A stretch of DNA of 64,000 nt from Mustelus asterias (taxonomy: Eukaryota), in NCBI RefSeq assembly GCF_964213995.1, contig NC_135825.1:12152001-12216000 (forward strand), read 5' to 3'. Positions 3,001 through 60,269 of the stretch are shown here, in pieces. Numbering within the stretch: the first letter of the stretch is position 1; the number at the start of each line of letters is the position of its first letter. The position numbers were made by a program, and so were the translations under genes. The notes beneath the pieces are model-generated. The model was not told the origin of the DNA. It saw only the letters and a list, made by a program, of their open reading frames with translations, and searched no databases.

Positions 3001-4334
3001 GCTGAGGACCCCTGCTGGTCGCTCCTAGTCGTCGTGGACCATGATGGCTGCCCCCATGAATCGCACATGGGCGAGGGCGCCAAGTGCAGCGACTCCTGGT
3101 GGTCTTCCTCCTCCTCCGTCAGCCACGATGGCGCCATCCTGGGATCGCACGTGGTCGGACCTCGTGGGTACTGCGACGCTGAAGGAGATTGTCTCCGTTC
3201 TGGAGGGTTACAAGCTGCACTGCCGTTTTTAGGCTTGGACCTGCAGACTTTGCCGTAGTGGCCTTTTTTACCGCACTGGCTGCAGATTGCCGTTCTTGCC
3301 GGACACTGTTGCCGTGGATGCTTGGCCCCACCACAAAAATAGCATCGCTGGCCACCTGGAGCTGCCGCCGTCGTCGGATCGATCTGGGAGCGCGGGTTAG
3401 CGGGGCGAGGAGGGAGCTGAGCTTGCTCCAGCCACGTTGACTGCACGTGGTCCTCGGGGTACAGCGCCAAGCTCTTCGACGCCGCTTCCAGCATCACGGC
3501 CATCTCCATTGCTTGGGTCAAGTCGAGTTTCCCCTTTTCCAGCAATTTAAGCCTGATGTACGAGGACCCTACCCCTGCTACGAACGCGTCTCGGGCGAGG
3601 TCGTACATATATTGTTCGGCTGATACGTCTTTACAATCGCAACCCCTGGCAAGCTGCAGGAGCTCATTGGCGTAGTCCTCCATGGTTTCGCCCGACTGCC
3701 AACGTCGTGTAGCGAGGAGGTAACGAGCATGTATCTCGTTGGGTGGCTTCGTGTATCTTTTTTTTAGGAGCTCGACGGCACCCGGGTAAGTGGGAGCTGC
3801 ACGAATGGCGAGATAAATCATGTCGCTTACCCTTGCGTGGAGGACCTGGAGTTTATCACTGTCTGTAGTGATAGCTACTGAGGCTGCCAGGTAGTCCTCG
3901 AAACACTTCCACCAATGGTCGAATGTGTTAGCTGCACCGACCGCACGTGGGTCCAGTGTCAGACGATCCGCTTTTAAGATCTGTTCCATACTCTCTTTTT
4001 TTTTGTACAGCTGTGAGTTTTCTGTTACACAATAAAATTGATGCGCAACAATTAAGCACGTGGAACCAAGGCTTCGATATTGAAGGCTTTTATTGTGTAA
4101 CAATGGAACTACTAACACGAATACACCAGTTCAGACTGAAGGGGTCCTGCCGGAGCAGGGGGTCTTATACCTCGCCACCGGAGGCGGGACCCCACTGGAA
4201 TGTGCCATGATAACTCTTATAACAGGTAAACACCCTAACCCAACAACATTGTACAACCCCCACAGTAACAACACCCTAGCCCAACAGTAACATAATAACA
4301 ACCCTCAGTGGTGAACCAACGATGGTTCACCACA
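1..4334 (-). mobile_element. Ty3/Gypsy LTR retrotransposon, paralogous copy in gene A intron (3' end outside window)
   Basis: Near-identical to 36589-40943. 5' LTR at 4039-4334 is followed by GTTTC (4335-4339). gag-pol starts at ATG 3989 and runs off the left edge, with a 21-bp in-frame deletion at 567/568 relative to the other copy. Confidence 0.96.
4039..4334 (-). repeat. 5' LTR (296 bp) of Gypsy copy A
   Basis: TG...CA termini on the minus strand; identical by eye to 40648-40943. Confidence 0.95.
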
Positions 4335-4977: not shown

Positions 4978-6773
4978 CATAAGACCATAAGACCATAAGA
5001 CATAGGAGCGGAAGTAAGGCCATTCGGCCCATCGAGTCCACTCCACCATTCAATCATGGTTGATTTCAACTCCATTTACCCGCTCTCTCCCCATAGCCCT
5101 TAATTCCTCGAGAAATCAAGAATTTATCAATTTCTGTCTTGAAGACGCTCAACGTCTCGGCCTCCACAGCCCTCTGTGGCAATGAATTCCACAGACCCAC
5201 CACTCTCTGGCTGAAGAAATTTCTCCTCATCTCTGTTCTAAAGTGACTCCCTTTTATTCTAAGGCTGTGCCCCCGCGTCCTAGTCTCCCCTGTTAATGGA
5301 AACAACTTCCCTACGTCCATCCTATCTAAGCCGTTCATTATCTTGTAAGTTTCTATCAGATCTCCCCTCAACCTCCTAAACTCCAATGAATATAATCCCA
5401 CGATCCTCAGACGTTCATCGTATGTCAGGCCTACCATTCCTGGGATCATCCGTGTGAATCTCCGCTGGACCCGCTCCAGTGCCAGTATGTCCTTCCTGAG
5501 GTGTGGGGCCCAAAATTGCTCACAGTACTCCAAATGGGGCCTAACCAGTGCTTTATAAAGCCTCAGAAGTACATCCCTGCTTTTGTATTCCAAGCCTCTT
5601 GAGATAAATGACAACATTACATTTGCTTTCTTAATTACGGACTCAACCTGCAAGTTTACCTTTAGAGAATCCTGGACTAGGACTCCCAAGTCCCTTTGCA
5701 CTTTAGCATTATGAATTTTGTCACCGTTTAGAAAATAGTCCATGCCTCTATTCTTTTTTCCAAAGTGTACAACCTCGCACTTGCCCACGTTGAATTTCAT
5801 CAGCCACTTCTTGGACCACTCTCCTAAACTGTCTAAATCTTTCTGCAGCCTCCCCACCTCCTCAATACTACCTGCCCCTCCACCTATCTTTGTATCATCG
5901 GCAAACTTGGCCAGAATGCTCCCAGTCCCGTCATCTAGATCGTTAATATATAAAGAGAACAGCTGTGGCCCCAACACTGAACCCTGCGGGACACCACTTG
6001 TCACCGGTTGCCATTCTGAGAAAGAACCTTTTATCCCAACTCTCTGCCTTCTGTCTGACAGCCAATCGTCAATCCATGTTAGTACCTTGCCTCGAATACC
6101 ATGGGCCCTTATTTTACTCAGCAGTCTCCCGTGAGGCACCTTGTCAAAGGCCTTTTGGAAGTCAAGATAGATAACATCCATTGGCTCTCCTTGGTCTAAC
6201 CTATTTGTTATCTCTTCAAAGAACTCTAACAGGTTTGTCAGGCACGACCTCCCCTTACTAAATCCATGCTGACTTGTCTTAATCCGACCCTGCACTTCCA
6301 AGAATTTAGAAATCTCATCCTTAACGATGGATTCTAGAATTTTGCCAACAACTGAGGTTAGGCTAATTGGCCTATAATTTTCCATCTTTTTTCTTGTTCC
6401 CTTCTTGAACAGTGGGGTTACAACAGCGATTTTCCAATCCTCTGGGACTTTCCCTGACTCCAGTGACTTTTGAAAGATCATAACTAACGCCTCCACTATT
6501 TCTTCAGCTATCTCCTTTAGAACTCTAGGATGTAGCCCATCTGGGCCCGGAGATTTATCAATTTTCAGACCTTTTAGTTTCTCTAGCACTTTCTCCTTTG
6601 TGATGGCAACCATATTCAACTCTGCCCCCTGACTTTCCTGAATTGTTGGGATATTACTCATGTCTTCTACTGTGAAGACTGACGCAAAGTACTTATTAAG
6701 TTCCTCAGCTATTTCCTTGTCTCCCATCACTAGATTACCAGCGTCATTTTGGAGCGGCCCAATGTCTACTTTT
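4978..6773 (-). mobile_element. CR1 LINE, 5'-truncated, open RT frame
   Basis: ORF 5066-6940 has KSPGPDG, NYRPISLTS, QGSVLGP, FADD and the CR1 C-terminus, but no APE endonuclease. (CATAAGAC)n tail at 4978-5004. The first ~55 aa of the ORF are flanking read-through. Confidence 0.95.
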
Positions 6774-7321
6774 TGGTTTATTTGAAAGAAGCACAAACTG
6801 ACACATTGCGGATACATCTGGATGTTGGGAGTTTGACTGGCTTCCCAACATATTGTCAATTTCTGTGTATTTAACCCCCTCTGTGCTCCCCCACCCACCC
6901 CCACAGCCCCACCATTCAGCGCTAAACCAACAAGGTACAATTACTACCAACTGGCTGCTCACTTCACTTTGTTAATGTCTGACTATTGGATTGATCTGGA
7001 CTGTAAAAATCTGACAGTGTGATATTTAAGACATTTCAGAGACAGGAAAATATTCTGAGCATCGCGGGTAATGTCTTTCACAATATCCTGCAGTTAAAGG
7101 AATTGTTTGTCTGATTATGTTTGAAGTTCTTGATCAGAATGTTGGACAGGCCACGAATTGAGTTTGTGTCACAAGAGTCGGATTTCCAGATCTCTGCCCT
7201 CTAGCTGCCAGACTCTGCATTGCTGCAGAGCCTCGGGATATCGGAGCTGTCAATGTTTCCTTGTGGATAAAACATGGATCAGACATTTCAGTAATAAAGA
7301 AAATCATTCAGAATAATGTAC

Positions 7322-7642
7322 CGTAAGATATTTGCAGCTCCACGGTTACCTTTGGATCTAAGTCAGGTATATCAATTCCACAGCGATACCATCCTGCATC
7401 TCCTGAGCGAAGATCCTCCATCGTAACAGCAAATATTCCTTGTGCCTTGTTATCTGTGATCGACATTCTCCCTCGCCGTCCATCTGGATCATCCGTTCTC
7501 ACTAAATATGAGCACTGTTCAGTCCAACCGTGACACCAATATTTCACGTTTTGTTTGTATTTCCCTTTATAATTGCAATTTATTGTGATCGATCTTCCCA
7601 CAATTCCTGTGACTTTCTTTTCTGCCCACAATGCACCTGAAA
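7322..7642 (-). CDS. Gene A exon 2: V-set Ig domain (V1), CD300/pIgR-like
   Basis: Acceptor tctcctcag|TTTCAGGT and donor TACG|gtacat; 321 nt, phase 1-1. VSGALWAEKKVTGIVGRSITINC...KYWCHGWTEQC...DAGWYRCG: canonical B/F Cys, C-strand Trp, DxGxYxC and the extra C-C' Cys pair typical of CD300/pIgR/TREM V domains. Confidence 0.92.
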
Positions 7643-10743: not shown

Positions 10744-10780
10744 CAGGCAGAGAAAAGATGACAAGAATCAGAATCCACAT
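10744..10780 (-). CDS. Gene A exon 1: signal peptide (MWILILVIFSLP+G)
   Basis: ATG at 10780 in acaATGT context, 37 nt hydrophobic, consensus donor CCTG|gtgagtaag, phase 1. Joins V1 in frame to give MWILILVIFSLPVSGA-LWAE. Confidence 0.9.
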
Positions 10781-18745: not shown

Positions 18746-19654
18746 ATCCAGGGAATTTCCCATCCTGAGGTTATACAGGCGCATTGTTCCATCCTGGGAA
18801 AGTGGAATATATCATTGGAGCGACTGGTATCCAGTGCATGGAAAAATCATGTTGCCAATTCCCTCCAGAATTTGTTCATCTTTAAATTGACAAAGATTAA
18901 GATAAGAATATGAAACAAGAAATGTAGACATTTAATCAGCAAACAGATCAATTATTCTCCAGATGTCGATATACAACCTGAAGGTCACAGCCACTGTTTG
19001 GATTTTGATTCCTCCACTAAATGTTTGATCCAAATCATGTTGGTTGGTTTTTGTTTTTTTATTAGTGTCACAAGTCGGCTTACATTAACACTGCAATGAA
19101 ATTACTGAGAAAATCCCCCAGTCGCCACACTCCGGCGCCAGTTCGGGTCAACTGAACAAGAATTCAGCATGGCTAATGCACCCGAACCAACACATCTTTC
19201 AGACTTCATTTAATGATGATAAAACATACTATAAAGTAGATTTGTTAAAAGAAATGTTCAAAGCTGGATGAGGATTGAATATTTGACCAGGATGCAAAAT
19301 TGCTTCGATGTAGATGGAATGCCAGAATCTTCATTTTCCCACTTTGGTCCAACTGTGAGAATTGGATTCATTGAGTGACTGGAAAAGAAAATCATCAGAT
19401 TCATTGAGACTGGGAGAACAATGCATCAATTGACATTTCAGTCTTGAACAGAATTCTGGAAATGGCAACAATTTGGGGCAGTTTCGAGATCACATTGATC
19501 GCCCTTTGCATGTGCGCTGGGAAACACTCGTTTGGATCCTTCATGAAGACACATAACCTTATTTCCCCACAGAAAACCAATGTTCCCCTGCAGCTGTGAT
19601 TACGGACAATTGACTGAAGAAATTGATTGTTATGTCCATGTTTCTAAAAATATT

Positions 19655-21569: not shown

Positions 21570-21632
21570 ACCAGGAGGGCAGACCCACTGGAGATGCTCA
21601 GGTGAGTGCATCGCTCAAAGTTACTGTCAAGG

Positions 21633-22520
21633 GGCAGTGTCCATTCAGTGCCAGGGGTCAGTGCCAGGGCAGTGCCCATGCTGTGCCAGTGGTCAGTGCC
21701 AGTGTCAGTGTCCATTCAGTGCCAGGGGTCAGTGCCAGGGCAGTGCCCATGCTGTGCCAGTGGTCAGTGCCAGTGTCAGTGTCCATTCAGTGCCAGGGGT
21801 CAGTGCCAGGGCAGTGCCAATGCTGTGCCAGTGGTCAGTGCCAGTGTCAGTGTCCATGCAGTGCCAGGGGTCAGTGCCAGGGCAGTGCCCATGCTGTGCC
21901 AGTGGTCAGTGCCAGTGTCCATGCAATGCCAGGGGTCTGTGCCAGTGTCAGTGTCCATGCAGTGCCAGGGGTCAATGCTGGGGCAGTGTCCATGCAGTGC
22001 CAGTGGTCAGTGCCAGTGTCAGTGTCCATGCAGTGCCAGGGGTCAATGCTGGGGCAGTGTCCATGCAGTGCCAGTGGTCAGTGCCAGTGTCAGTGTCCAT
22101 GCAGTGCCAGGGGTCAATGCTAGGGCAGTGTCCATGCAGTGCCAGTGGTTAGTGCCAGTGTCAGTGTCCATGCAGTGCCAGGGGTCAGTGCCAGGGCAGT
22201 GCCGATGCTGTGCCAGTGTTCAGTGCCAGTGTCAGTGTCCGTGCAATGCCAGGGGTCAGTGCCTGTGTCAGTGTCCATGCGGTGCCAGGGGTCAGTGCCT
22301 GTGTCAGTGTCCATGCAGTGCCAGGGGTCAGTGCCAGTGTCCATGCAGTGCCAGTGGTCAGTGCCAGTGTCAGTGTCCATGCAGTACCAGGGGTCAATGC
22401 TAGGGCAGTGTCCATGCAGTGCCAGGGGTTAATGCTGGGGCAGTGTCCATGCAGTGCCAGTGGTCAGTGCCAGTGTCAGTGTCCATGCAGTGCCAGGGGT
22501 CAATGCCAGAGGCAGTGTCG
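21633..22520 (+). repeat. CAGTGC-based composite minisatellite (~885 bp)
   Basis: Tandem variants of CAGTGCCAGGGGT / CAGTGCCAGTGT / CAGTGTCCATG. Confidence 0.95.
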
Positions 22521-22876
22521 GGGGATGGGGGGGGCGGGGGGGGGGGGGGGGTGCATGAGGTTGTGCAAGGGGAGGGGGCTTCCGTTTTCACTTTTGTGCA
22601 TCAAGTTGACTTTCAAAAATATCATTTTGATCTTGAAGAAACTGAAATTTCTGGTGGGATGGGCAGTATCCTGTCCCTTCAACATTTATACACATATTCT
22701 TCACCATATTTCTTCACCGCCTCTTTTCCCGCCCCTGCCACACTTGGAAATGAAAGGTAAAATTCCCCCCTGTGTTTAGTCCTGTGGACATTGACATCAG
22801 TGCAAGTTTCTCTGCACAATATCTGTGATAATTACAAAGTGCTCAGAATGATTGTTGTAAAGTTCATAATCCTCAC

Positions 22877-22976
22877 CTGAGATTTTCTCGTGTACCATGT
22901 GACCGAAATCACACAAATCACCAGGAGGGTAAAGAGCCCCCAGCGAATCACATTCCAGATGAAGGAACTGAGCAAA
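22877..22976 (-). CDS. Gene B transmembrane exon (SLLSSFIWNVIRWGLFTLLVICVISVTWYTRKSQ)
   Basis: Acceptor tgtatttcttccag|TTTG and donor CAG|gtgagg; 100 nt, phase 2-0, matching the stalk exon. Hydrophobic span with an intramembrane Arg followed by an RK stop-transfer. Confidence 0.85.
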
Positions 22977-25014
22977 CTGGAAGAAATACAGAATGATTTG
23001 AAGGGAATGAGGCAGCTTCGTGTTTGGAACATTAATCTCCTCTTTACACTGTGACCTATTGTAGCAGCGTCGCACAGACAAGGCACGTTAGCTGGAGCAA
23101 TCAACTAAAGTTTCACTGATCAACTTCATGATCATTAGATACAGATCAAATGGAGCTGGTTTCATTAACTTTCCTCAGTATATCTGGAATGCTGAGTAAA
23201 ATCTTAGAAGTAAGAATGTTATGAATTGACTGGTCATTGGGACAGAAACATTGTCTGGTGCAACATAACATTGGTGAGATATCTGTTCAGTGAGTAAGAA
23301 ACTTCCAATAACATCATCCCACACTGTTCCAAAGTAGAATCATATTCCACTCAATATTAACTCTGCTCCTCTCTTCACAGATGCTACCGGACCTGCTGAG
23401 TTTTCCCAGCACTTTCTGTTTTCATCATCCCACAATTCCCTGGTGCACCTCCTGACAGGAAATTCGGAACCAGCCGGAAGCAGACGGCCTCAGTTTGGGA
23501 ACAATGTATTAAACTGGGCAACTGAGAAGGAGAAGATGACAGTGAATGCAATGTTCCTGTCAGCGATACTCCAGAACACACCGGGTTAAGGGAATCTGGC
23601 ATCGCTGGAGTGTGACAAACACAACTCCATGAGATTGGGTTCACGGTGAAGTGATTAACATGAATAATGAAAACTGCACCATCTAAGGTGTGGCAAACAG
23701 AGAAAGCTCACTTCTTAGTCTGAACTTCCACTGACAGAAACAGCAACTTTGTTAGGAAGCTAACACAATACCATTATGTAAACACAGCTACCGGGTGGGA
23801 TGGTGAGCCCGGGTTGGGGGACCACAGGAATGCTGATGGGGATTCAATATCTGGCAAAACCTGGAAGGCGCAGGCGACTTCATCAGATTCACGGCCATAG
23901 TGGGCAAGAACCTGATTTACATACATTTTAATATATTTCCATATCATTAAAGACCCCCCCACTCCCCAGATATTGAGCCCTCGCTGTGTTTTCAAACCGG
24001 GGCAACGTGACATCACATTGGTGCATTTTACAACAGGTTCACCTGGACATGATGGGGAACCCCCTTCCTGGGCAAGAGGGATATGGTCAGGCAGTGGCCT
24101 GGCAATGCCCTCTGGCACTCTCCCTTGGCGCAGGTTGGCACTGCCAAGTTGGCACCATGCCACCCCAACATTGCCAACCTGGTAGTGCCAACCTGTACCA
24201 GTGGCAGTTCCGGGGTGGACCTCAGTGGGAGTCTGATGGGGGAGGGGTTATTCATTTACAAGTGAGGGTGGGCCGGAGCGGACAGGGGAGCTGGAGCAGC
24301 CGTTTGTGGGAAGGGGCTGGGTTTGTCGGCAATGGCTGTGTGGGTGGAGGGTTGGAGGGAAGGGCTCCAATGTTCGGGGGGAAGGGGGGTGGTGCCAGCA
24401 CTGACTGCTGGAGGGGGGGAAAGGTCTGATATTCGGGGGAGGGGTTTGGTGTCAGCACTGACTGCTGAGGGGTGATGTGGGGGGAGAATTGCTGGCTCAT
24501 AATAGGAGGATGCCCCGACTCTGACCGGGGTGTGGTGGGATTTGGGGGGAGCCCCTGAGAGCTCTGTGGTGGGTGGGGGGGAGGTTACATTTAGTTTTGA
24601 TTGGGCCGCCATGTTTGTGCACTGTCAGCTTACTGCAGCCAGGATTTGCTGGTGTATCGAGGCCCCGCCCCCTACATGACGATGTGAAGCACGCCCAGCT
24701 GTTTTTTTTGTGACAGAGTGTGGTAAGTTCTGGAGAGAAAGACAACCTGCTTCGAGCCAGAACCAACAGTTTTCAGTAAGATTTCCCTAATATTGTGTTT
24801 TATGTTTACGGGGGCTGTTTACAGATTCAGCTTTATTCTGGAGGCAGTCGGTGTATCAGTAAAACATTCAGTTCAGATGCTGGGAGAGCAGGATAATGGC
24901 TCATTTTAGCCATGGAGGGGGGAAGCTAAGCAAAAAATGACTGTTGTTTCCGGTGAGAAAACCGACAGGTGTCTCTCCAGAGAAACAGGTTAGATTTCTG
25001 TGCAGATCTTTGAC

Positions 25015-25650
25015 TGAGAGAGGAAACCGGAGCACACGGAGGAAACTCACGTAGGTTCAGAGAATGTGCAGACTCCAGGCAGACAGTCACCCAAGGCCAG
25101 AATTGAACTTGGATCCCTCGTGCTGCGAGGCAGCACTGCTAACCACAGTGCCTCTGTGTCACCTGTTGTCATCCTATTGTTAGATCAAAATCCAGGAATT
25201 TCTTACCACTCACTTTTCGTCCATGCCACACCAATCTGACCTGTGTCACACAACTGCAGTTCTCCCCTGATCTGATGATCACTGACACTGGAACCATTTC
25301 TGGGACCTGTGGACATTCACTCCAAGGATTTTCAAATCCTCCACATACCCCAGTATCCTCCCATTTATTATCTCACCATTTGCTTTGTTTGACCTGCTCA
25401 AATGCATCACCTCACACTTCTCTGGGTTGAATTCCATTTGCCACTTTTCTGCCCACCTGACCAGTCCATTGATATCTTCCTGCAACCGATAGCAATCCTC
25501 CTCGCTATCTACTGCATTAGTAATTTTCATTACATTCCATCTAAATCATTAATATATGCCAGAAAAAACAGGGGACCGAGCACTGAGCATTGGAAACAGC
25601 CTTCCAGTCACAAAAACAGCCATCAACAATCATCCTTTGTTTCCTGCCAC
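25015..25650 (-). mobile_element. SINE head fragment (25015-25165) and CR1 RT fragment (~25280-25650) (paralogue ~62307-62942)
   Basis: Minus-strand A-box-like ggcactgtggttagcagtgctgcc; ORF LQEDINGLVRWAEKWQMEFNPEKCEVMH is CR1 RT. Confidence 0.8.
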
Positions 25651-27295
25651 AATTAATTCTTGGCCATTTGTTTACGGAAGTGGGTTTTGAAATTATACAG
25701 CACTTTTCATGGCCTTTGGATGGCCTAAAGAATTTTATAATCTGGGAAGTATTTTTAAACAACCGCCACTGTTGTGATATGGGAGATGTGGCAACCAATT
25801 TGCACACAGCAAAATCTCAGAAACAGCAGTGAACTTTGACCAGATCAATATTGGCCATTTCTTCAGAGATCTCCTTGTCTGCTTTTTCTGTAGATAAGAA
25901 GTGACCTGCTGCGTATTTCCAGCAGCTTTTTCATCATTTTGATGTTTAGTTGGTATTTTTTCCTCATCACCATTGTAACCTCCGTGTTTACATTGGACAA
26001 CAATTTCTGCTCTTTCTGTGTGTCCCAACTATGTTAGGGGTAGTGGGTTTTAACAGAAAAAGAAAATACTTGGTTTGCACACGTAGATTCAAGCAAGCAC
26101 AAACCAGGTTTTATTGATGAGCTGCTCTCTGCACTGCATCAAGTACAAAACTGACAGTCACACAGCAGCCTGAGCACGCACCCTAATGACATCACATCAA
26201 ATCAACCCATTTTAAAACTCACACCTTCATGATGAAGCGAACACAACAACATCCCGCCAAGGTTTCTGATCTGAGAGTTATTGAAAAATGATGCCCAGTC
26301 TCCCCGATCGTCAGAGACTGGACATATGACCCAAGATGTGTGTCAGGACCCTGCAGATGACCCAACATGATGATCTCCATGGGAATTGCCTGGGACATTG
26401 GAACTTCCAACGGACAATTCTGCTGTACCCTGGGTCCCTCTGTGAAAATCTTCAGCTCTGGGTAAGAGTCAGACACTTCAAACAATTCCATGGGGCTTAA
26501 CTGGATAGTTACCCAGGAAATGTTAGACTGAAAGAATCAAGTTTAATTCCTGGGTAATCACAGAACTGACCCCCGAATAATCACACTGACCCCCTGGAGT
26601 CCCCCCAATCCTCTGATTAACCCCCTGACACACCAACTATCACCCCACACTCCGCCAATTCCACCTGATCTTGTGACTATGCCACAACCTGAGCCAATCC
26701 GATTATTCCCTCTGACTACCCTTTGCACCCACCACTTGATTACCCAATGTCCAAATCTGATTAGCCCCCAAACCAGGCTACCCCTGCCAACCTGACCCAA
26801 TTGCCACACTATTCATCTACCACCTCATCAACCTACAACCTCACCCACCTGCAACCCTACCCTCCTGTCACTTCATCAACAGACTACCTCACCCAACTGC
26901 CACTCTACCCACCTCACACGCTTGTGACCTCACTCATCTGTTTTCTCACCCACCTACCATCCTTGCCTCCGACTAGCAACACATCTATACACCTGTCTCC
27001 CTATCCATCTTTCACCCGACCCACCTGTGCTCCTACAGAGTTCCGATGGAGTTCTCCGAGGGACACTGCGCTCCACAGTTCTGGAGAATCTGGAGTCGGA
27101 AGATCAGGCAAGAAATGTGGAGCTGAGTCGAGGGTGGAAAGCTTCAAGCGGAGTGGCAATCCAACAATGATTGCTGCTCTGTGACTGGCCCAGGACAATA
27201 AATGACATCCATTCTCACGCCAAAGTTGTTAAAGAGGATTTAATCACTCACACAGAAGCCATGTCATTTAAACACTAACAATAAAAACAGCGTAC

Positions 27296-27374
27296 CTTTC
27301 AGCAAATTTGGAGTTTGGAATTGAGGAATGTGTTGGCGATACTGTTAAAATTTCACAAGAATTTTCAGGTCCGA
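27296..27374 (-). CDS. Gene B stalk exon (VGPENSCEILTVSPTHSSIPNSKFAE+AG)
   Basis: Acceptor gttgtttccttctttcag|TCGG and donor AAAG|gtacgc; 79 nt, phase 1-2. Links the C2 exon (phase 1) to the TM exon (phase 2) in frame; S/T/P-rich. Confidence 0.8.
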
Positions 27375-28569
27375 CTGAAAGAAGGAAACAACATTCAGAT
27401 CAGCCTCATTTTCATTGTCGTTAACTGAGAGAGTCACATTGTCAAGTGGCACCTCAACCTGAGGGAGAACCACGTTGAGGGAGCGCCTCTTCTTGGGATG
27501 TGGGTGTCGCTGTTTAGGCCAGCAATTATTGCCCATCCCTAATTGCCCTTGAGAAGGTGGTCATGAGATGCCTCTTGAACCGATGCAGTCCATGTGGTGT
27601 AGGTACATCCACTGTGCAGTGAGGGAGGGAGCACCCATCGCATCTGCGCCAGTCAAAAACAAACCACCTGACTATTCCAAACCCAGTTTCCAGCACTTGG
27701 CCCATAGCTCTGTGTGCCTTGGCATCACGAGTGCACATCTAAATAATTCTTAAATGTTATGAGGGTCTGTAAGACACCAGGAAAACTTGCCTATTCCTCC
27801 TGGAAGAGGGCCATGAAATCATTTACATTTAGCTCAAAGGATGCATGGATCAGCAGTTCAACCAGACAATAGCACCGTCAACAGCAGAGCGCAATCTCCG
27901 TGCTGTACAGTGATATCAACCCCTTTCTCGGAAGGAGAATTTGAACTCACAATCCATTGGTTTCAGAAATCAGGCTGCTACCAACTGAGCCCCTTCTGAC
28001 ACTGACATATTTGAATATTAAACATTCAAACTGGTTATAGTCCTCATTAATTCAGGACTATCGTTAGTGTTTATGTTAACACTGAGTAATTCAGTGTTTA
28101 GAACATGGAATTCTGAGATTTTGAGCAGCATTTTGTGATGATAGAATTTTTCGGCAAAGAAGGAAATTTGGTCCATTGCCCTCCATCGCTATGAAAGAAT
28201 TTGCCATTTAGAATCAGAGAATCCATGCAGCGCACAAGGAGGCCATTTGGCCCATCGAGTCTACAACGACACTCCCATTGTTGTGTCTTTTCCCCAAATC
28301 CTCCTAAATGTCTGCTCCTTTTTTGCTTCCCTTGTGAAAGCTGTTATTGATTCTGTTTCTAACGCAATCCATATCTTAACAATCATTTGCATCAATAAAA
28401 TTCTCCCAATTTCTCCCGCTGTCCTTGTTGTGATGATCTTAACTGGATTCTCTCGAGTATTCACTCACTTACTACTGGAAATAATTAGTCTCAATTTATC
28501 TTATCAAAGCTTCAAATAATTTTGAATAGATTTAGCAGACTATTTCCTTCTATTCTAATGATTCTTTGC

Positions 28570-29330
28570 CGGTGTTAGCTGTTGGGAGCACTCTTGTATC
28601 TGCAGCCACAAGGATCTGTGTTCTCGCCCTACTCTAGGAATCAAAAATCAAAGCTGAAACTCCTGTGCAGTACTGAGGAAGTGCTGCACTGTTGGAGGTG
28701 CTGCCTTTCGGATGGGATGTTGAACTGAGTCCCCAATCTGCCTGCTCTATGGGCGGCATGGTGGCACAGTGGTTGGCACTGTTGCCTCACAGCGCCAGAG
28801 ACCCGGGTTCAAATCTGGCCTTGCGTGACTGTCTGTGTGGAATTTGCACATTCTCCCCGTGTCTGCGTGGGTTTCCTCCGGGCACTCTGGTTTCCTCCCT
28901 CAGTCCAAAGATGTGCGGGTAGGTGGATTCGCCAAGCTAAATTGCCCCTTAGTGTCAGGGGGAACTAGCTGGGGTAAATGCATGGGATTATGGGGATAAG
29001 GCCTGGGTGGGATTGACGTTGGCGGAGACTCGATGCGTCAAATGGTCTCCTTCTGCACTGTAAGATTCTATGGATTCTATGAAACTATGGATGTATAAGA
29101 TCGATGGCACTTGATCTCCTGAAGAAAAACAGAAGCGTTATCCGAAATCACCCGGCGATATTTATCCCTCAATCAAAAACAGGTTATCAGTTCATTATTT
29201 TGAGTTTGCTGTGTGTAAATTGGCTGCTGTGTTTCCTGCCTCACAACAGTGACAGTGCTTCAAAAAGCATTTCATTGGTTGTAAAGCGCTTCGAGAAGTC
29301 AGATGACTGTGAAAATAAATGGAAGACATT
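28570..29330 (+). mobile_element. Deu-domain SINE (SacSINE1/AmnSINE1-like) interrupted by a younger SINE
   Basis: gtgcagtactgaggaagtgctgcactgttggaggtgctgcctttcggatg...atatttatccctcaa...aaattggctgc recalls the Deu domain (from memory, not searched). Confidence 0.6.
28751..29088 (+). mobile_element. HE1/V-SINE-like SINE, near full length
   Basis: A box TGGCACAGTGG, B box GGTTCAAATC, V-like domain tgtgtggaatttgcacattctccccgtgtctgcgtgggtttcctccgg and an (ATTCTATG)n tail. Confidence 0.9.
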
Positions 29331-29695: not shown

Positions 29696-31320
29696 AGAAC
29701 TTAGAACATAGAACATAGAACAGTACAGCACAGAACAGGCCCTTCGGCCCACAATGTTGTGCCGAGCTTTATCTGAAACCAAGATCAAGCTATCCCACTC
29801 CCTATCATCCTGGTGTGCTCCATGTGCCTAACCAATAACCGCTTAAATGTTCCTAAAGTGTCTGACTCCACTATCACTGCAGGCAGTCCATTCCACACAC
29901 CAACCACTCTCTGCGTAAAGAACCTACCTCTGGTATCCTTCCTGTGTCTCCCACTACGAACCCTATAGTTATGCCCCCTTGTAATAGCTCCATCCACCCG
30001 AGGAAATAGTCTTTGAACGTTCACTCGATCTATCCCCTTCATCATTTTATAAACTTCTATTAAGTCTCCCCTCAGCCTCCTCTGCTCCAGAGAGAACAGC
30101 CCTAGCTCCCTCAACCTTTCCTCATAAGACCTACCCTCCAAACCAGGCAGCATCCTGGTAAATCTCCTCTGCACCCTTTCCAGCGCTTCCACATCCTTCT
30201 TATGTGAGGTGACCAGAACTGCACACAATATTCCAAATGTGGTCTCACCAAGGTCCTGTACAGTTGCAGCATAACCCCACGGCTCTTAAACTCCAACCCC
30301 CTGTTAATAAAAGCTAACACACTATAGGCCTTCTTCACAGCTCTATCCACTTGAGTGGCAACCTTTAGAGATCTGTGGATATGAACCCCAAGATCTCTCT
30401 GTTCCTCCACAGTCTTCAGAACCCTACCTTTGGCCCTGTAATCCACATTTAAATTAGTCCTACCAAAATGAATCACCTCACATTTATCAGGGTTAAACTC
30501 CATTTGCCATTTTTCAGCCCAGCTTTGCATCCTATCTATGTCTCTTTGCAGCCTACAACAGCCCTCCACCTCATCCACTACTCCACCAATCTTGGTGTCA
30601 TCAGCAAATTTACTGATCCACCCTTCAGCCCCCTCCTCTAAGTCATTAATAAAAATCACAAAGAGCAGAGGACCAAGCACTGATCCCTGCGGCACTCCGC
30701 TAGCAACCTGCCTCCAATCCGAAAATTTTCCATCCACCACCACCCTCTGTCTTCGATCAGACAGCCAGTTACCTATCCAATCGGCCAACTTTCCCTCTAT
30801 CCCACACCTCCTCACTTTCATCATAAGCCGACCATGGGGGACCTTATCAAACGCCTTACTGAAATCCATGTATATGACATCAACTGCCCTACCTTCATCA
30901 ACACACTTAGTTACCTCCTCAAAAAATTCTATCAAATTTGTGAGGCACGACTTGCCCTTGACGAATCCATGCTGACTATCCCGGATTAATCCGCATCTTT
31001 CTAAATGGTCGTAAATCCCATCTCTTAGGACCTTTTCCATCAATTTACCAACCACCGAAGTAAGACTAACCGGTCTATAATTACCAGGGTCATTTCTATT
31101 CCCTTTCTTAAACAGAGGAACAACATTCGCCATTCTCCAGTCCTCTGGCACCATCCCCGTGGACAGAGAGGACCCAAAGATCAAAGCCAAAGGCTCTGCA
31201 ATTTCATCCCTTGCCTCTCAAAGAATCCTAGGATACATTTCATCAGGCCCAGGGGACTTTTCGACCTTCAGTTTATTCAAAACTGCCAGGACATCCTCCC
31301 TCCGAACATCTATTTCCTCC
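29696..31320 (-). mobile_element. CR1 LINE, 5'-truncated, one frameshift
   Basis: ORFs 30111-31190 (NYRPVSLTS, QGSVLGP, FADD) and 29785-30228 (ERVQRRFTRMLPG, RLRGDLIEVYK) overlap across a frameshift near 30200; (AGAACAT)n tail. Confidence 0.95.
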
Positions 31321-31339: not shown

Positions 31340-31663
31340 CAACGCTGTTGATCTGTGCCACATAACTGCAATTCTCCCCTGATCTGTTGATCACTGACAC
31401 TGAAACCATTTCACTGGATTTTTCTTCCTGGTGATTTGAGGCTGTGCAGTAATATTGATGATGTTGCTGTGTGAAGGATTGACAATGTAGATCCAGTTTA
31501 TTGGTGTCAGAGATCTCTGAATCTTCAGACGGGGTCTTTTCATGCCATGTGTACTGAATGGGAAGTGATCCCTGGACAGACTCACAGGAGACGGACACTG
31601 AGCCCCCAGAACATGAGGCATTTGGTGGTGATAAAAATTTAAGTTCAGGAACAGACACGGGTT
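31340..31663 (-). CDS. Gene B exon 5: second C2-type Ig domain
   Basis: Acceptor tcttttccacag|AACCC and donor GTTG|gtaagt; 324 nt, phase 1-1. PVSVPEL...VSCESVQGSLPIQYTW...YYCTASN resembles the FcR-like C2 pattern CxSxxGSxPIxYxW...YxCxAxN. Confidence 0.9.
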
Positions 31664-32924: not shown

Positions 32925-33233
32925 CGTCAGATATTTGTAGCTTTACAGGAAACATTGAAAGGAAGCCGGGCTTATCAATACCACAGCTGTACCATCCTGC
33001 ATCTCCTGAATGAAGATCCTCCATAGTAACAACAAATAATGCTTGTGTCTTGTGATCTGTGATCGACATTCTCCCTCGCCGTCCATCTGGATCGTCTGAT
33101 TTTACCAAAACAGAGCACTGACGACTCCAAGTTTTCACATGTGACTGAGACAATTTGTCATAGTGACAATCTATAGTGATCGATCTTCCCAAAACTCCTG
33201 TTACATTATTTTTTGCCCACAATGCACTTGCAG
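32925..33233 (-). CDS. Gene B exon 4: second V-set Ig domain (V2)
   Basis: Acceptor ttgtcttttcag|CTGC and donor GACG|gtacat; 309 nt, phase 1-1. LWAKNNVTGVLGRSITIDC...KTW...DAGWYSCG; paralogous to V1. Confidence 0.9.
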
Positions 33234-33902: not shown

Positions 33903-34226
33903 CAATGTTGCTGATTTGTGTTAAATAACTGCAGTCATTCTCTGAAATGTGGATCACTGACACTGTAACCATTTCACTGGATTTTTTTCCCTGGTTATTT
34001 GAGGCTGTGCAGTAATATTGATGACGTCGCTGTTTGAAGGATTGACAATGTAGATCCAGATTATTGGTGTCAGAGATCTTTGAATCTTCAGACGGGGTCT
34101 TTTCATACCATGTGTACTGAATGGGAAGTGATCCCTGGACAGACTCACAGGAGACGGACACTGAGCCCCCAGAACATGAGGCATTTGGTGGTGATAAAAA
34201 TCTAAGTTCAGGAACAGACACGGGTT
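33903..34226 (-). CDS. Gene B exon 3: first C2-type Ig domain
   Basis: Acceptor tttctttcccacag|AACCC and donor ATTG|gtaaat; 324 nt, phase 1-1. Highly similar to exon 5. Confidence 0.9.
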
Positions 34227-36548: not shown

Positions 36549-39500
36549 TTAAGAACAAAAGGTGGCGGGGTGCAAGAAAAAACAGGTCATATAAACAGAA
36601 TTCACAAGTCCAGACGGTCTGGAGGACCGCACCGACGCTGTGATCTCCTCAACACCGGTTGCGAAACCGGAGCAGGTGCTTGCGGTGGCGTTCTTTCCAA
36701 AACAACGTCTGGCTGTCCCCTCAAGGACTCCAGGGCCGGTTGGCCCTGGTGAGGCGATGGTGCAGGGGATCCTGGAACCTTTGGTGGTGGTGGTGGTGGT
36801 GATGATGGTCGCGCCGATCTCCCGAGTCTCAGGCAAGCTGTACATGGGAGTAAAAGTGTTATGCACTGGTCCCGGTGCTGACCGCGCCACGTCTCGGGAA
36901 GCAATGAGGAGTAGTGGATTCGTGACTGGGGGAATAGGAGCGACAGGAGTTGCTACGTCCCCTGCGGGCGCCAGGTCTCTAATGGAGACAGTGTCCTCTC
37001 GCCCGTCAGGATATGCCACATAGGCATACTGAGGGTTGGCGTGGAGGAGTTGGACCGGTTCGACCAAGGGGTCGGACCTGCGAGCCCTCACATGTCGCCG
37101 CAGAAGGACGGGTCCTGGGTACGTCAACCAGGCTGGCAATGAGGTTCCCGAGGACGACTTCCGAGGGAATGAGAACATCCTCTCGTGGGGAGTAGCATTG
37201 GTTGCCGTACACAGGAGGGAGCGGATAGAATGGAGTGCCTTTGGAAGGACCTCCTGCCAACGGGAGACTGGAAGGCCCCTGGATTTCAGTGCCAGTAGGA
37301 CAGCCTTCCAGACTGTAGCATTCTCCCTTTCCACCTGTCCGTTACCCCTAGGGTTGTAGCTCGTGGTTCTACTAGAGGCAATCCCGAATGAGAGCAGGAA
37401 TTGCCTCAAGTCGTTGCTCATGAACGACGAGCCCCTGTCGCTATGAATGTAGCAGGGGTACCCGAACAGGGTAAAAAGCTCACTGAATGCCTTGATGACG
37501 GTGGCAGTCGACGTGTCCGCACAGGGGACAACAAACGGAAACCGGGAATACTCGTCTATTATGTTGAGGAAATAGACATTCCGGTCCGTTGAGGGAAGGG
37601 GGCCCTTAAAATCCACACTCAGCCTCTCAAAAGGGCGAGTGGCCTTGACCAATTGTGCCCGGTCTGGTCGATAAAAGTGTGGTTTGCATTCTGCGCAAAT
37701 CCGACAGCTTCTCGTCACTGACCTGACATCCTCCACCGAGTAGGGCAGGTTGCGGGCTTTGACGAAGTGGTAGAGTCTGGTGACTCCAGGATGACACAGA
37801 TCATTGTGGAGAGCCTTCAAGCGGTCCTCCTGCATGATGGCGCATGTTCCGCGCGAGAGGGCATCCGAGGACTCATTGAGCTTCCCTGGACGATACATAA
37901 TATCGTAATTATAGGTGGAGAGCTCAATTCTCCACCGCAAGATCTTATCGTTCTTGATCTTGCCCCTCTGCGTGTTGCTGAACATAAACGCCACGGATCG
38001 TTGATCCGTGATCAGGGTGAACCGCTTCCCTGCCAGGTAATGGCGCCAGTGTCTGACTGCCTCCACAATGGCCTGAGCCTCCTTCTCCACCGCTGAGTGC
38101 CGAATTTCGGGGCCTTGAAGGGTGCGGGAAAAGAACGCGACGGGCCTGCCTGCCTGGTTTAGTGTGGCGGCTAGGGCGAAATCAGATGCATCACTCTCCA
38201 CCTGGAAAGGGATGGATTCATCCACTGCGTGCATCGTGGCTTTCGAGATGTCGCTTTTCAAAGCCTTGAAGGCCAATTGGGCCTCCGGCGTAAGTGGGAA
38301 GGTCGTGGACTTAATGAGCGGACGAGCTTTGTCCGCGTAGTTGGGGACCCACTGTGCATAATACGAAAAGAACCCGAGGCATCTCCTCAGTGCTTTCGTG
38401 CTAGCGGGCAAGGGAAGTTCAGTAAGTGGGCGCATACGGTCTGGATCAGGGCCAATGACCCCGTTTTCCACCACGTATCCGAGGATGGCTAACCTACGCG
38501 TACGGAATACGCACTTCTCCCTGTTATAGGTCAGATTCAGGCGAGATGCAGTGCGCAGAAAGTGTTGGAGATTCGTGTCGTGGTCCTGCTGGTCATGGCC
38601 GCAGATGGTGACGTTATCCAGGTACGGGAAGGTAGCCCGCAACCCGTTCTGGTCCACCATTCGGTCCATAGCACGCTGGAAGACCGAGACCCCATTGGTG
38701 ACACCAAATGGAACCCTGAGGAATTGGTATAGACGACCATCCGCCTCAAAAGCCGTATATTGTCGGTCCTCTGGGCGGATGGGGAGTTGATGGTAGGCGG
38801 ACTTAAGGTCTATGGTAGAAAACACTCGGTACTGCGCAATCTGATTGACCATATCAGAAATGCGCGGGAGAGGATACGCATCCAGCTGCGTATAACGATT
38901 AATGGTCTGACTATAGTCGATGACCATCCGAGGTTTGTTCCCGCTTTTGACTACCACGACCTGCGCTCTCCACGGACTAGCACTGGCCTGTATGATCCCT
39001 TCCTTGAGGAGCCGCTGAACCTCAGATCTAATAAAGATCCGGTCCTCAGCGCTGTAACGCCTACTTTTAGTAGCGATGGGCTTGCAGCCAGGTACCAGAT
39101 TTTTAAAAAGGGATGGTGTAGTGATTTTCAGGGTGGATAGATTGCATGCAGGGCGCTTTGGGCAATTTGGAGGCTGCGGCTGATTCCCTACTGCCAGTGA
39201 AGGGAGTGGCCCACCGTACTGTAGGATCACACTCTTCATGTGGACCATAAAGTTTAGTCCGAGGAGAATTGGCGCGCAAAGGTGAGGTAACACAAGGAGC
39301 CTGTATTGCTCGTAAATTGTGCCCTGTACCTCAAGAGTTACCATACATCGTCCTTGGATCGGTACAGACCGGGACCGTGATGCCATGGAAATTTTCTGCT
39401 TGGCAGGGAGAACCCGGAGTCCACACCTTTTAGCAGTTTCAGGGTGTATGAAACTTTCGGTGCTCCCACTGTCAAACAGACAATTCACAGTTCGACCACT

Positions 39501-40598
39501 AACCTTTATATCCATCATGGAATTTTCATGTCTGTAGTGCCTGGTCTGGTCCAGGGAGATCGACGCCACCGTTGGCCCCTGGGCGTCACTGCATGCTGCC
39601 GATGTGGATGCTGAGGACCCCTGCTGGTCGCTCCTAGTCGTCGTGGACCATGATGGCCGCCCCCATGAATCGCACATGGGCGAGGGCGCCAAGTGCAGCG
39701 ACTCCTGGTGGTCTTCCTCCTCCTCCGTCAGCCACGATGGCGCCATCCTGGGATCGCACGTGGTCGGACCTCGTGGGTACTGCGACGCTGAAGGAGATTG
39801 TCTCCGTTCTGGAGGGTTACAAGCTGCACTGCCGTTTTTAGGCTTGGACCTGCAGACTTTGCCGTAGTGGCCTTTTTTACCGCACTGGCTGCAGATTGCC
39901 GTTCTTGCCGGACACTGTTGCCGTGGATGCTTGGCCCCACCACAAAAATAGCATCGCTGGCCACCTGGAGCTGCCGCCGTCGTCGGATCGATCTGGGAGC
40001 GCGGGTTAGCGGGGCGAGGAGGGAGCTGAGCTTGCTCCAGCCACGTTGACTGCACGTGGTCCTCGGGGTACAGCGCCAAGCTCTTCGACGCCGCTTCCAG
40101 CATCACGGCCATCTCCATTGCTTGGGTCAAGTCGAGTTTCCCCTTTTCCAGCAATTTAAGCCTGATGTACGAGGACCCTACCCCTGCTACGAACGCGTCT
40201 CGGGCGAGGTCGTACATATATTGTTCGGCTGATACGTCTTTACAATCGCAACCCCTGGCAAGCTGCAGGAGCTCATTGGCGTAGTCCTCCATGGTTTCGC
40301 CCGACTGCCAACGTCGTGTAGCGAGGAGGTAACGAGCATGTATCTCGTTGGGTGGCTTCGTGTATCTTTTTTTTAGGAGCTCGACGGCACCCGGGTAAGT
40401 GGGAGCTGCACGAATGGCGAGATAAATCATGTCGCTTACCCTTGCGTGGAGGACCTGGAGTTTATCACTGTCTGTAGTGATAGCTACTGAGGCTGCCAGG
40501 TAGTCCTCGAAACACTTCCACCAATGGTCGAATGTGTTAGCTGCACCGACCGCACGTGGGTCCAGTGTCAGACGATCCGCTTTTAAGATCTGTTCCAT
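36549..40598 (-). CDS. Gag-Pol polyprotein, single ORF of 1349 aa from MEQILK
   Basis: Two CX2CX4HX4C knuckles (CYFCGGAKHPRQQC, CSQCGKKGHYGKVC), protease LFDSGS, RT (IDLKSAYHQ, VPFGVTNG, YLDN), RNase H (SDAS, EKEAQA, TDQ, SDALSR), integrase HHCC and D-D-E (VDFKG, SDRGSSF, VERENAT). No chromodomain seen. Confidence 0.95.
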   Translation of the reverse strand: MEQILKADRLTLDPRAVGAANTFDHWWKCFEDYLAASVAITTDSDKLQVLHARVSDMIYLAIRAAPTYPGAVELLKKRYTKPPNEIHARYLLATRRWQSGETMEDYANELLQLARGCDCKDVSAEQYMYDLARDAFVAGVGSSYIRLKLLEKGKLDLTQAMEMAVMLEAASKSLALYPEDHVQSTWLEQAQLPPRPANPRSQIDPTTAAAPGGQRCYFCGGAKHPRQQCPARTAICSQCGKKGHYGKVCRSKPKNGSAACNPPERRQSPSASQYPRGPTTCDPRMAPSWLTEEEEDHQESLHLAPSPMCDSWGRPSWSTTTRSDQQGSSASTSAACSDAQGPTVASISLDQTRHYRHENSMMDIKVSGRTVNCLFDSGSTESFIHPETAKRCGLRVLPAKQKISMASRSRSVPIQGRCMVTLEVQGTIYEQYRLLVLPHLCAPILLGLNFMVHMKSVILQYGGPLPSLAVGNQPQPPNCPKRPACNLSTLKITTPSLFKNLVPGCKPIATKSRRYSAEDRIFIRSEVQRLLKEGIIQASASPWRAQVVVVKSGNKPRMVIDYSQTINRYTQLDAYPLPRISDMVNQIAQYRVFSTIDLKSAYHQLPIRPEDRQYTAFEADGRLYQFLRVPFGVTNGVSVFQRAMDRMVDQNGLRATFPYLDNVTICGHDQQDHDTNLQHFLRTASRLNLTYNREKCVFRTRRLAILGYVVENGVIGPDPDRMRPLTELPLPASTKALRRCLGFFSYYAQWVPNYADKARPLIKSTTFPLTPEAQLAFKALKSDISKATMHAVDESIPFQVESDASDFALAATLNQAGRPVAFFSRTLQGPEIRHSAVEKEAQAIVEAVRHWRHYLAGKRFTLITDQRSVAFMFSNTQRGKIKNDKILRWRIELSTYNYDIMYRPGKLNESSDALSRGTCAIMQEDRLKALHNDLCHPGVTRLYHFVKARNLPYSVEDVRSVTRSCRICAECKPHFYRPDRAQLVKATRPFERLSVDFKGPLPSTDRNVYFLNIIDEYSRFPFVVPCADTSTATVIKAFSELFTLFGYPCYIHSDRGSSFMSNDLRQFLLSFGIASSRTTSYNPRGNGQVERENATVWKAVLLALKSRGLPVSRWQEVLPKALHSIRSLLCTATNATPHERMFSFPRKSSSGTSLPAWLTYPGPVLLRRHVRARRSDPLVEPVQLLHANPQYAYVAYPDGREDTVSIRDLAPAGDVATPVAPIPPVTNPLLLIASRDVARSAPGPVHNTFTPMYSLPETREIGATIITTTTTTKGSRIPCTIASPGPTGPGVLEGTARRCFGKNATASTCSGFATGVEEITASVRSSRPSGLVNSVYMTCFFLHPATFCS

Positions 40599-40647
40599 AC
40601 TCTCTTTTTTTTTGTACAGCTGTGAGTTTTCTGTTACACAATAAAAT

Positions 40648-40943
40648 TGATGCGCAACAATTAAGCACGTGGAACCAAGGCTTCGATATTGAAGGCTTTT
40701 ATTGTGTAACAATGGAACTACTAACACGAATACACCAGTTCAGACTGAAGGGGTCCTGCCGGAGCAGGGGGTCTTATACCTCGCCACCGGAGGCGGGACC
40801 CCACTGGAATGTGCCATGATAACTCTTATAACAGGTAAACACCCTAACCCAACAACATTGTACAACCCCCACAGTAACAACACCCTAGCCCAACAGTAAC
40901 ATAATAACAACCCTCAGTGGTGAACCAACGATGGTTCACCACA
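40648..40943 (-). repeat. 5' LTR with TATA-like TATAAG (40773-40778), Inr-like TTCAGT (~40746) and AATAAA (40698-40703)
   Basis: Motifs read on the minus strand; TATA-to-Inr spacing is about 32 nt. Confidence 0.9.
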
Positions 40944-43382: not shown

Positions 43383-43930
43383 TGCTTTATTTGAAAGAAG
43401 CACAAACTGACACATTGCGGATACATCTGGATGTTGGGAGTTTGACTGGCTTCCCAACATATTGTCAATTTCTGTGTATTTAACCCCCTCTGTGCTCCCC
43501 CACCCACCCCCACAGCCCCACCATTCAGCGCTAAACCAACAAGGTACAATTACTACCAACTGGCTGCTCACTTCACTTTGTTAATGTCTGACGATTGGAT
43601 TGATCTGGACTGTAAAAATCTGACAGTGTGATATTTAAGACATTTCAGAGACAGGAAAATATTCTGAGCATCGCGGGTAATGTCTTTCACAATATCCTGC
43701 AGTTAAAGGAATTGTTTGTCTGATTATGTTTGAAGTTCTTGATCAGAATGTTGGACAGGCCACGAATTGAGTTTGTGTCACAAGAGTCGGATTTCCAGAT
43801 CTCTGCCCTCTAGCTGCCAGACTCTGCATTGCTGCAGAGCCTCGGGATATCGGAGCTGTCAATGTTTCCTTGTGGATAAAACATGGATCAGACATTTCAG
43901 TAATAAAGAAAATCATTCAGAATAATGTAC

Positions 43931-44251
43931 CGTAAGATATTTGCAGCTCCACGGTTACCTTTGGATCTAAGTCAGGTATATCAATTCCACAGCGATACCA
44001 TCCTGCATCTCCTGAGCGAAGATCCTCCATCGTAACAGCAAATATTCCTTGTGCCTTGTTATCTGTGATCGACATTCTCCCTCGCCGTCCATCTGGATCA
44101 TCCGTTCTCACTAAATATGAGCACTGTTCAGTCCAACCCTGACACCAATATTTCACGTTTTGTTTGTATTTCCCTTTATAATTGCAATTTATTGTGATCG
44201 ATCTTCCCACAATTCCTGTGACTTTCTTTTCTGCCCACAATGCACCTGAAA
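43931..44251 (-). CDS. Gene B exon 2: V-set Ig domain (V1), CD300/pIgR-like
   Basis: Same splice sites as 7322-7642; differs by H->Q in KYWC(H/Q)GW. Confidence 0.92.
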
Positions 44252-47352: not shown

Positions 47353-47389
47353 CAGGCAGAGAAAAGATGACAAGAATCAGAATCCACAT
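47353..47389 (-). CDS. Gene B exon 1: signal peptide
   Basis: Identical to 10744-10780; ATG at 47389 and donor gtgagtaag. Confidence 0.9.
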
Positions 47390-56000: not shown

Positions 56001-56621
56001 AATCATGTTGGTTGGTTTTTGTTTTTTTATTAGTGTCACAAGTCGGCTTACATTAACATTGCAATGAAATTACTGAGAAAATCCCCCAGTCGCCACACTC
56101 CGGCGCCAGTTCGGGTCACTGAGCGAGAATTCAGCATGGCCAATGCACCCGAACCAACACAACTTTCAGACTTCATTTAATAATGAAAAAACATACTATT
56201 ATGTAGATTTGTTAAAAGAAATGTTCAAAGCTGGATGAGGATTGAATATTTGACCAGGATGCAAAATTGCTTCGATGTAGATGGAATCCCAGAATCTTCA
56301 TTTTCCCACTTTGGTCCAACTGTGAGAATTGGATTCATTGAGTGACTGGAAAAGAAAATCATCAGATTCATTGAGATTGGGAGAACAATGCATCAATTGA
56401 CATTTCAGTCTTGAACAGAATTCTGGAAATGGCAACAATTTGGGGCAGTTTCGAGATCACATTGATCGCCCTTTGCATGTGCGCTGGGAAACACTCGTTT
56501 GGATCCTTCATGAAGACACGTAACCTTATTTACCCACAGAAAACCAATGTTCCCCTGCTGCTGTGATTATGGACAATTGACTGGAGAAATTGATTGCTCT
56601 GTCCATGTTTCTAAAAATATT

Positions 56622-59301: not shown

Positions 59302-59369
59302 ATGTACCAGGAGGGCAGACCCACTGCAGATGCTCAGGTGAGTGCATCGCTCAAGTTACTATCAAGGAG

Positions 59370-59805: not shown

Positions 59806-60169
59806 CGGGGGGCAGGGCGGGGGTGTGGAGGGGGGGGGGGGCGGTGCATGAGGTTGTGCAAGGGGAGGGGGGTTCCATTTTCACTTTTGTGCATCAAGTT
59901 GACTTTCAAAAATATCATTTTGATCTTGAAGAAACTGAAATTTCTGGTGGGATGGGCAGTATCCTGTCCCTTCAACATTTATACACATATTCTTCACCAT
60001 ATTTCTTCACCGCCTCTTTTCCTGCCCCTGCCACACTTGGAAATGAAAGGTAAAATTCCCCCCTGTGTTTAGTCCTGTGGACATTGACATCAATGCAAGT
60101 TTCTCTGCACAATATCTGTGATAATTACAAAGTGCTCAGAATGATGGTTGTAAAGTCCATAATCCTCAC

Positions 60170-60269
60170 CTGAGATTTTCTCGTGAACCATGTGACCGAA
60201 ATCACACAAATCACCAGGAGGGTAAAGAGCCCCCAGCGAATCACATTCCAGATGAAGAAACTGAGCAAA
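60170..60269 (-). CDS. Gene C transmembrane exon (SLLSFFIWNVIRWGLFTLLVICVISVTWFTRKSQ)
   Basis: Same splice sites as 22877-22976; two non-synonymous changes. Confidence 0.85.

Follow-up and report, generated by a model that had tools for sequence, protein, structure and literature searches.

Does the transmembrane (TM) segment at this locus of Mustelus asterias, which carries the residues N-V-I-R, represent an LRC-type activating TM that was joined to a CD300/pIgR-like receptor by module shuffling, or is it native to the receptor family in which it is found? The DNA analyzed (hereafter the window) comprises 64,000 nucleotides (G000:C25:12,152,001-12,216,000) and consists of nearly identical units, about 37 kb long and arranged in tandem, with copies that are 99.3% identical over 13 kb. 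Translated in all six frames, the window contains 22 matches to the pattern N-[VILM]-[VILMF]-R, two of which precede a hydrophobic stretch of 16 residues. The two TM-like NVIR copies, located on the minus strand at 22954 and 60247, had a Kyte-Doolittle mean of 2.12; the other 20 matches reached at most 0.75. The placement of NVIR at 22943-22954 with a second copy in the neighboring gene C, as given in the preliminary description, was thereby confirmed.

The first copy belongs to gene B, which is predicted to be an intact receptor gene encoding 513 amino acids. Eight exons on the minus strand, with canonical splice sites and phases, yield one open reading frame of 513 residues with the layout leader-V-C2-V-C2-stalk-TM-short tail. 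The leader exon (47353..47389) is followed by the first V-type Ig exon (V1, 43931..44251), the first C2-type Ig exon (33903..34226), the second V-type Ig exon (V2, 32925..33233), and the membrane-proximal C2-type Ig exon (31340..31663). A stalk exon of 79 nt (27296..27374, phase 1 to 2) sets the frame of the TM exon, which spans 100 nt (22877..22976; phase 2 in, phase 0 out, AG/GT ends) and contains a second in-frame acceptor 9 nt inside, with 22967 as first base. The last coding exon (19331..19378) provides 15 tail residues and the stop, and an AATAAA lies at 19063. The NVIR codons (22943..22954) correspond to residues 473-476, the Arg being the invariant residue of W-x-x-x-R-W described below. 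As the stalk exon turns phase 1 into phase 2, the NVIR reading depends on it; in a frame check of gene B, omitting this exon led to a stop within 10 codons. The predicted protein ends 21 residues past the hydrophobic stretch, and there is no tyrosine in its tail, in line with the earlier statement that the tail carries neither ITIM nor ITAM. V1 carries an extra Cys pair. V2 is four residues shorter and has lost the first Cys of this pair; judged from the sequence, the remaining Cys is probably unpaired.

Gene B was compared with known receptors, and by its sequence it is an MDIR5-like member of the known MDIR family. The family was reportedly described in skate by Cannon et al. in 2006, and the abstract of the MDIR paper is said to describe MDIR5 as being without activating or inhibitory motifs. 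Gene B shares 54% identity (273/507) with MDIR5 of the clearnose skate (ABC86800.1) from leader to tail, TM included, and 52% with MDIR3. The layout of MDIR5 is the same, W-x-V-x-R-W is in register in both proteins, and both continue for 37 residues beyond the Arg. At the position of the gene B Asn, however, MDIR5 has a Lys, and the Mustelus gene differs further by its longer stalk and by its location in a recent 37-kb tandem array. As a family member gene B is ordinary, a new MDIR5-like gene; the preliminary description recognized the CD300/pIgR-like receptor type but missed the MDIR identity. MDIRs have been described as relatives of CD300, TREM, and pIgR that make up a multigene family with both activating and inhibitory receptors (PMC3031540).

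The ectodomain agreed with a CD300/pIgR-like type only in part. When V1 was compared with solved structures, pIgR and CD300 (CD300f/CD300a/CD300c) occupied the top 19 of 60 rows, whereas the membrane-proximal C2 exon, compared in the same way, scored highest against FCRL5 (9loc, E 2e-39 summed over 4 stretches). The latter is a likeness of domain type, and no FcR D1-D2 module was seen in gene B. With the CD300/LMIR and pIgR family gene B shares the V1 domain type, and in both families activating and inhibitory members are paired within a single cluster; some activating CD300s, such as LMIR8, use FcR-gamma, as is proposed here for gene B. In contrast to these receptors, V domains alternate with FCRL-like C2 domains in gene B, and an Arg at the outer end takes the place of the TM Lys of LMIR8. 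While pIgR transports Ig, gene B is likened to it by V-domain sequence only. A search of the genome for IL10 synteny found no match anywhere.

The cluster on C25 extends over 11.86-12.96 Mb and contains at least 55 C2 exons, at least 12 NVIR TM exons, at least 5 further Arg-type TM exons, and at least 7 uncharged (inhibitory-type) TM exons; all of these counts (55 C2, 12 + 5 Arg-type, 7 uncharged) are lower bounds. Among the short tails behind an Arg-type TM, a YxxL/I/V/M-type motif was found in 1 of 45, whereas ITIM-like motifs, caught by a narrow pattern, were present in 16 of 16 inhibitory-type tails. As read from these sequences, the contrast between tails is a paired-receptor layout. Activating members of paired receptors need an ITAM adaptor (PMC4810170).

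To describe the conservation of the TM segment, a profile of 20 TMs was run over 148 collected proteins and gave 56 distinct segments; three of these came from an unrelated low-complexity protein and were removed, and one was re-registered by eye, leaving 53 elasmobranch segments. Arg was present in 53/53, the Trp directly after it in 53/53, and the Trp at -4 in 50/53; as the profile was seeded with Arg-bearing TMs, the invariance of the Arg was partly favored by the way the set was collected. Position -3, where gene B has its Asn, was variable (K19, D14, N6, S5, A5, E1, M1, T1, P1). All 12 near-identical Mustelus copies have Asn there, compared with 6 of the 53 family segments; the species with Asn-bearing TMs include members of each of the two shark superorders as well as rays (Mustelus, Stegostoma, Pristiophorus, Mobula, Amblyraja). 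Tyr or Phe was found at -7 in 37/53 segments, and copy B has Ser at this position. The conserved unit of the aligned segments is therefore W-x-x-x-R-W and not NxxR. On the same alignment, Asn appears as one of nine tolerated residues at -3 and is probably not required for docking, and the match to NxxR reads as partly an accident of the residue carried at a variable position. NxxR, put forward earlier as the motif of this receptor, thus did not hold as a conserved motif across the family.

The interval G000:C25:12,751,000-12,957,000 (L030-L034, L038-L052) holds a sister subfamily in which a W-A-I-F-R-W TM exon is combined with one to three V exons of the CD300/pIgR type. Five such TM exons lie at 12.75-12.96 Mb downstream of V exons, with Ala in place of Asn. 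No C2 exon was found in the 180 kb of this V-only subfamily that were examined, and on C25 there was no C2 match past 12.58 Mb. At the DNA level, gap-free comparison of NVIR and AIFR exons gave z values of 7.7-9.0 (0 of 1000 codon shuffles), and the exons are homologous; activating compared with inhibitory TM exons gave z values of 0.2 to 3.7 over 12 pairs. Given the homologous AIFR exons and the residue counts at -3, W-x-x-x-R-W is a unit native to both subfamilies, in which Asn is optional. All three kinds of TM exon, NVIR-type, AIFR-type, and inhibitory, open in phase 2 (six of the seven inhibitory ones were read in register), and this shared acceptor fits a family architecture better than an imported exon. 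Database searches with this segment returned little: Pfam has no model for the MDIR-type TM, a word-based search that used the P0053 TM region gave two matches, both from rays, the TM profile against solved structures gave 8 rows, all with E >2 and none an immune receptor, and in the ESM Atlas the best score for stalk-TM-tail of P0023 was 0.81 (a TREM-like cluster), below the lead level of 0.9.

The similarity to LRC receptors was considered separately. As in gene B, the LRC NxxR-type TMs (FcalphaRI, GPVI, OSCAR, NCR1, activating LILRs, TARM1) and Xenopus XFL TM1, SLAM, and ILR combine an Arg at the outer end with a short tail free of motifs. The gene B copy additionally shares with LRC and XFL TMs the Asn three residues ahead of the Arg, and most of its relatives an aromatic residue at -7. 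Unlike the LRC and XFL segments, however, the MDIR TM does not conserve the Asn, and an invariant Trp flanks the motif on both sides. In LRC receptors the Tyr of the DYT motif lies at about -7. No DYT was present in the MDIR segments listed, only the Tyr or Phe mentioned above. The C-terminal end of the gene B TM is aromatic and then basic, while LRC TMs have acidic residues there, according to a source which also counts the polar motif residue, printed as Asp at -2, among the invariable LRC features and calls the role of the NxxR Asn in FcR-gamma docking unexplained (PMC6557307). A further difference is that the TM exon of gene B ends at 22877 with a phase-0 donor, the tail being encoded by an exon of its own; in the Xenopus TM1 genes, TM1 and tail share one exon (PMC2413239).

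The claim that an LRC-type TM was imported by shuffling could not be upheld, since the exon is a native part of the MDIR cluster throughout elasmobranchs, V-only genes included, has the same phase-2 acceptor as the family's inhibitory TM exons and lacks both DYT and the acidic C-end. When 1.84 billion representatives were searched with profile A1, there were 15 matches, namely 14 elasmobranch MDIR-type proteins and one unrelated protein; no LRC, XFL, or Xenopus TM was among them, the 35-column profile having limited sensitivity. Nor was the wiring itself new. NxxR TMs are found on three ectodomain families, LRC, FCRL, and SLAM (PMC4536121, PMC6557307), Xenopus tropicalis has 49 NxxR-type TM exons (PMC4536121), Xenopus FCRLs carry TM1, the NxxR TM, with domain shuffling as the paper's stated conclusion (PMC2413239), and mouse LMIR8 is a CD300 member coupled to FcR-gamma (PMC5974347). 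Because of LMIR8, the contrast drawn earlier between the adaptors of LRC and CD300 receptors was also too sharp.

What the invariant Arg might do was approached through possible partners. Two zeta-family TM exons were found in the genome, both with a Cys-x-x-x-Asp core: one (L014, G000:C275:471050-471133) is closest to FcR-gamma, the other (L013, G000:C17:72917226-72917312) closest to CD3-zeta. No ITAM exon was found in the 9 kb downstream of L014, and a search for the DAP10 family gave two weak non-gene matches. The Asp of the FcR-gamma-like segment lies 16 residues, and the receptor Arg 19 residues, from the first cytoplasmic basic residue, within one helical turn of each other in depth; with these depths, the two residues would meet in the outer leaflet. 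LRC TMs have been shown to require the Arg for association with FcR-gamma (PMC6557307), and Xenopus XFL2, which has such a TM, needs FcR-gamma for surface arrival (PMC2413239). On the other hand, FcR-gamma and CD3-zeta-like chains are bound by catfish LITR 2.6b although its TM charge is a Lys, and replacing this Lys by Ala does not abolish binding (PMC4810170). Charge rules for adaptor choice in fish are, by analogy with this case, loose.

The paired-receptor layout, the zeta-family exons, the matching depth, and the LRC precedent for the Arg make docking through the Arg the most likely of the readings considered. On balance, we expect that gene B, as a predicted intact MDIR5-like receptor, activates cells, with its outer-leaflet Arg docking on an FcR-gamma or CD3-zeta dimer. 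Binding of a ligand by the V/C2 ectodomain would cluster the receptor, the Arg would pair with the Asp pair of the adaptor TMs, and the adaptor ITAM would then recruit Syk-family kinases, while inhibitory paralogs of the same cluster, with their ITIM-like tails, would oppose activation. The docking unit would be the MDIR family's own W-x-x-x-R-W helix. The TM exon and the short tyrosine-free tail support the activating-type receptor with an outer-leaflet Arg proposed beforehand.

Such a role presupposes that the TM exon is used, and gene B might instead be a recent duplicate in which the exon is unused in the NVIR frame, the product being secreted or read through, or the gene a pseudogene. We regard this as very improbable. 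Two NCBI models matching window exons (P0001, P0002) do skip the TM exon, the NVIR frame hangs on the 79-nt stalk exon, and the 37-kb copies are too young for a per-copy selection signal, being 99.3% identical over 13 kb. Nevertheless, all splice sites are canonical and the frame is open, and the exon is included in the NVIR frame in the paralog models P0023 and P0005 of Mustelus asterias and in skate MDIR5. Compared with the most distant NVIR copy, the TM exon of gene B is 82% identical (75/91 nt), and the flanking 200-nt intron stretches are 55% and 50% identical. Two in-frame acceptors are available; some of the NVIR copies read have lost one, but each keeps at least the other. Also, a 757-nt contig of run X4, from a related organism and RNA by guess, matches only 22877-22978 and diverges from the genome beyond both ends. 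A stalk-to-TM joint was absent from the 15 joints listed (76 more lay outside the listing) on 22560-28800 from four runs of other organisms guessed to be RNA, and no RNA record was listed for the stretch of the Ig exons. If the exon is used, the Arg could still be a residue of the membrane interface or of topology, or serve another partner, such as a DAP10/DAP12-type adaptor or a charge-independent helix surface, without signaling through FcR-gamma or CD3-zeta; this we consider unlikely. Its place between invariant Trp residues is typical of an interface, and a hydrophobic window of 19 residues that starts two residues ahead of the Arg, and so includes it, scores 2.01. The adaptor choice of catfish LITR, independent of the charged residue (PMC4810170), points in the same direction. 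So does the MDIR abstract, which reportedly describes MDIR5 as motif-less. However, the Arg is kept in 53/53 short-tail-type TMs of sharks and rays and is absent from the six inhibitory TM exons read in register, which argues for a signaling role. The DAP12 Asp lies in mid-membrane, and in depth the Arg matches it less well than it does the outer Asp of FcR-gamma.

The question of ancestry is distinct from that of signaling. The MDIR TM may be a true homologue of the NxxR TM (TM1) of LRC and Xenopus FCRL receptors, inherited from jawed-vertebrate ancestry and joined to a CD300/pIgR-type V domain, with the Asn later lost in many elasmobranchs. The presence of Asn in both shark superorders and in rays would fit such a loss, as would the codons of Lys, Asp, Ser, and Thr, each of which is one base away from an Asn codon. 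Tyr or Phe at -7 in 37/53 segments falls where LRC receptors have the Tyr of DYT. Moreover, the exon directly upstream of the stalk is FCRL5-like, and in Xenopus it is FCRLs that carry TM1 (PMC2413239). Against this, only 6/53 segments have the Asn, compared with an invariable polar residue in the LRC TM (PMC6557307), the TM exon of the window has no DYT and no acidic C-end residue, and the tail has an exon of its own, unlike the Xenopus TM1 genes (PMC2413239). V-only neighbors, which are without an FCRL-like domain, have the homologous exon with Ala, and the matches of profile A1 were 14 MDIR-type proteins and one unrelated, LRC and XFL proteins being absent from them. The Tweety genes of this genome are located on C5, C12, C23, and small contigs, and none is on C25. 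A Tweety gene marks the CD300 region. As a marker of the LRC region, Tweety is named in PMC6557307. Convergence is easy, with an Arg near the outer helix face meeting the same Asp pair. As the search with a 35-column profile is a weak one, deep homology with the LRC segment retains a likelihood, if a low one.

The preferred reading, docking by an MDIR-own helix, makes a pan-elasmobranch activating-type TM with an invariant Arg between two Trp residues definable, and this TM covers MDIR5. The natural N/D/K/S/A series at -3 bears on whether the NxxR Asn matters for FcR-gamma docking. The FcR-gamma-like exon was found in a shark contrary to a 2014 survey, which reported no FcR-gamma in sharks or cartilaginous fish (PMC4016189). 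A more far-reaching interpretation appears doubtful: the W-x-x-x-R-W helix that sharks and rays have in their MDIRs would be the most ancient version still in existence of the TM with which tetrapod LRC, FCRL, and SLAM receptors dock FcR-gamma, module and FcR-gamma would both derive from the jawed-vertebrate ancestor, the module first on a CD300/pIgR-type V domain, and MDIR5-type receptors would be an unrecognized large activating arm of elasmobranch immunity. If true, this strong reading of LRC homology would push a known pattern back in time and open no new one, because shuffling of Arg-type TMs among Ig families is already an accepted theme. In the literature search, whose scope left out most subscription papers, neither the MDIR TM Arg nor a shark NxxR was the subject of any paper found.

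The remaining features of the window concern the neighboring copies and the introns. NCBI proteins of Mustelus asterias match a C2 exon of the window at 100% identity. Gene A, in the next tandem copy on the minus strand, is represented by its leader exon (10744..10780) and first V exon (7322..7642), and the rest of it lies before the window start. Gene C, on the same strand, has its TM exon with the second NVIR copy at 60170..60269 and its last coding exon at 56298..56345; its other exons lie past the window end (G000:C25:12216590-12236679). In the NCBI models LOC144511684 and LOC144511685 (window 7322-47389 and neighbors), three tandem copies are joined into one protein and the TM and tail exons are skipped; both models are probably annotation errors that conceal activating genes. 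In the V1-C2 intron, a Gypsy-like gag-pol frame (label from reading the translation) is open over 1396 aa at 36549-40739 and recurs at 1-4100. It was duplicated along with the 37-kb unit at 99.3% identity, and the array is therefore recent. Intronic LINE reverse-transcriptase fragments, CR1-like by reading, lie at 5066-6940, 30111-31217, and 41675-43549, and between the stalk and TM exons (25238-25300 and 62530-62592) a C2 exon has left a truncated 3' part, which adjoins a LINE fragment. In the intron 3' of the TM exon, a minisatellite of variable length occupies 21570-22520 and 59306-59806, and copies B and C differ in it.
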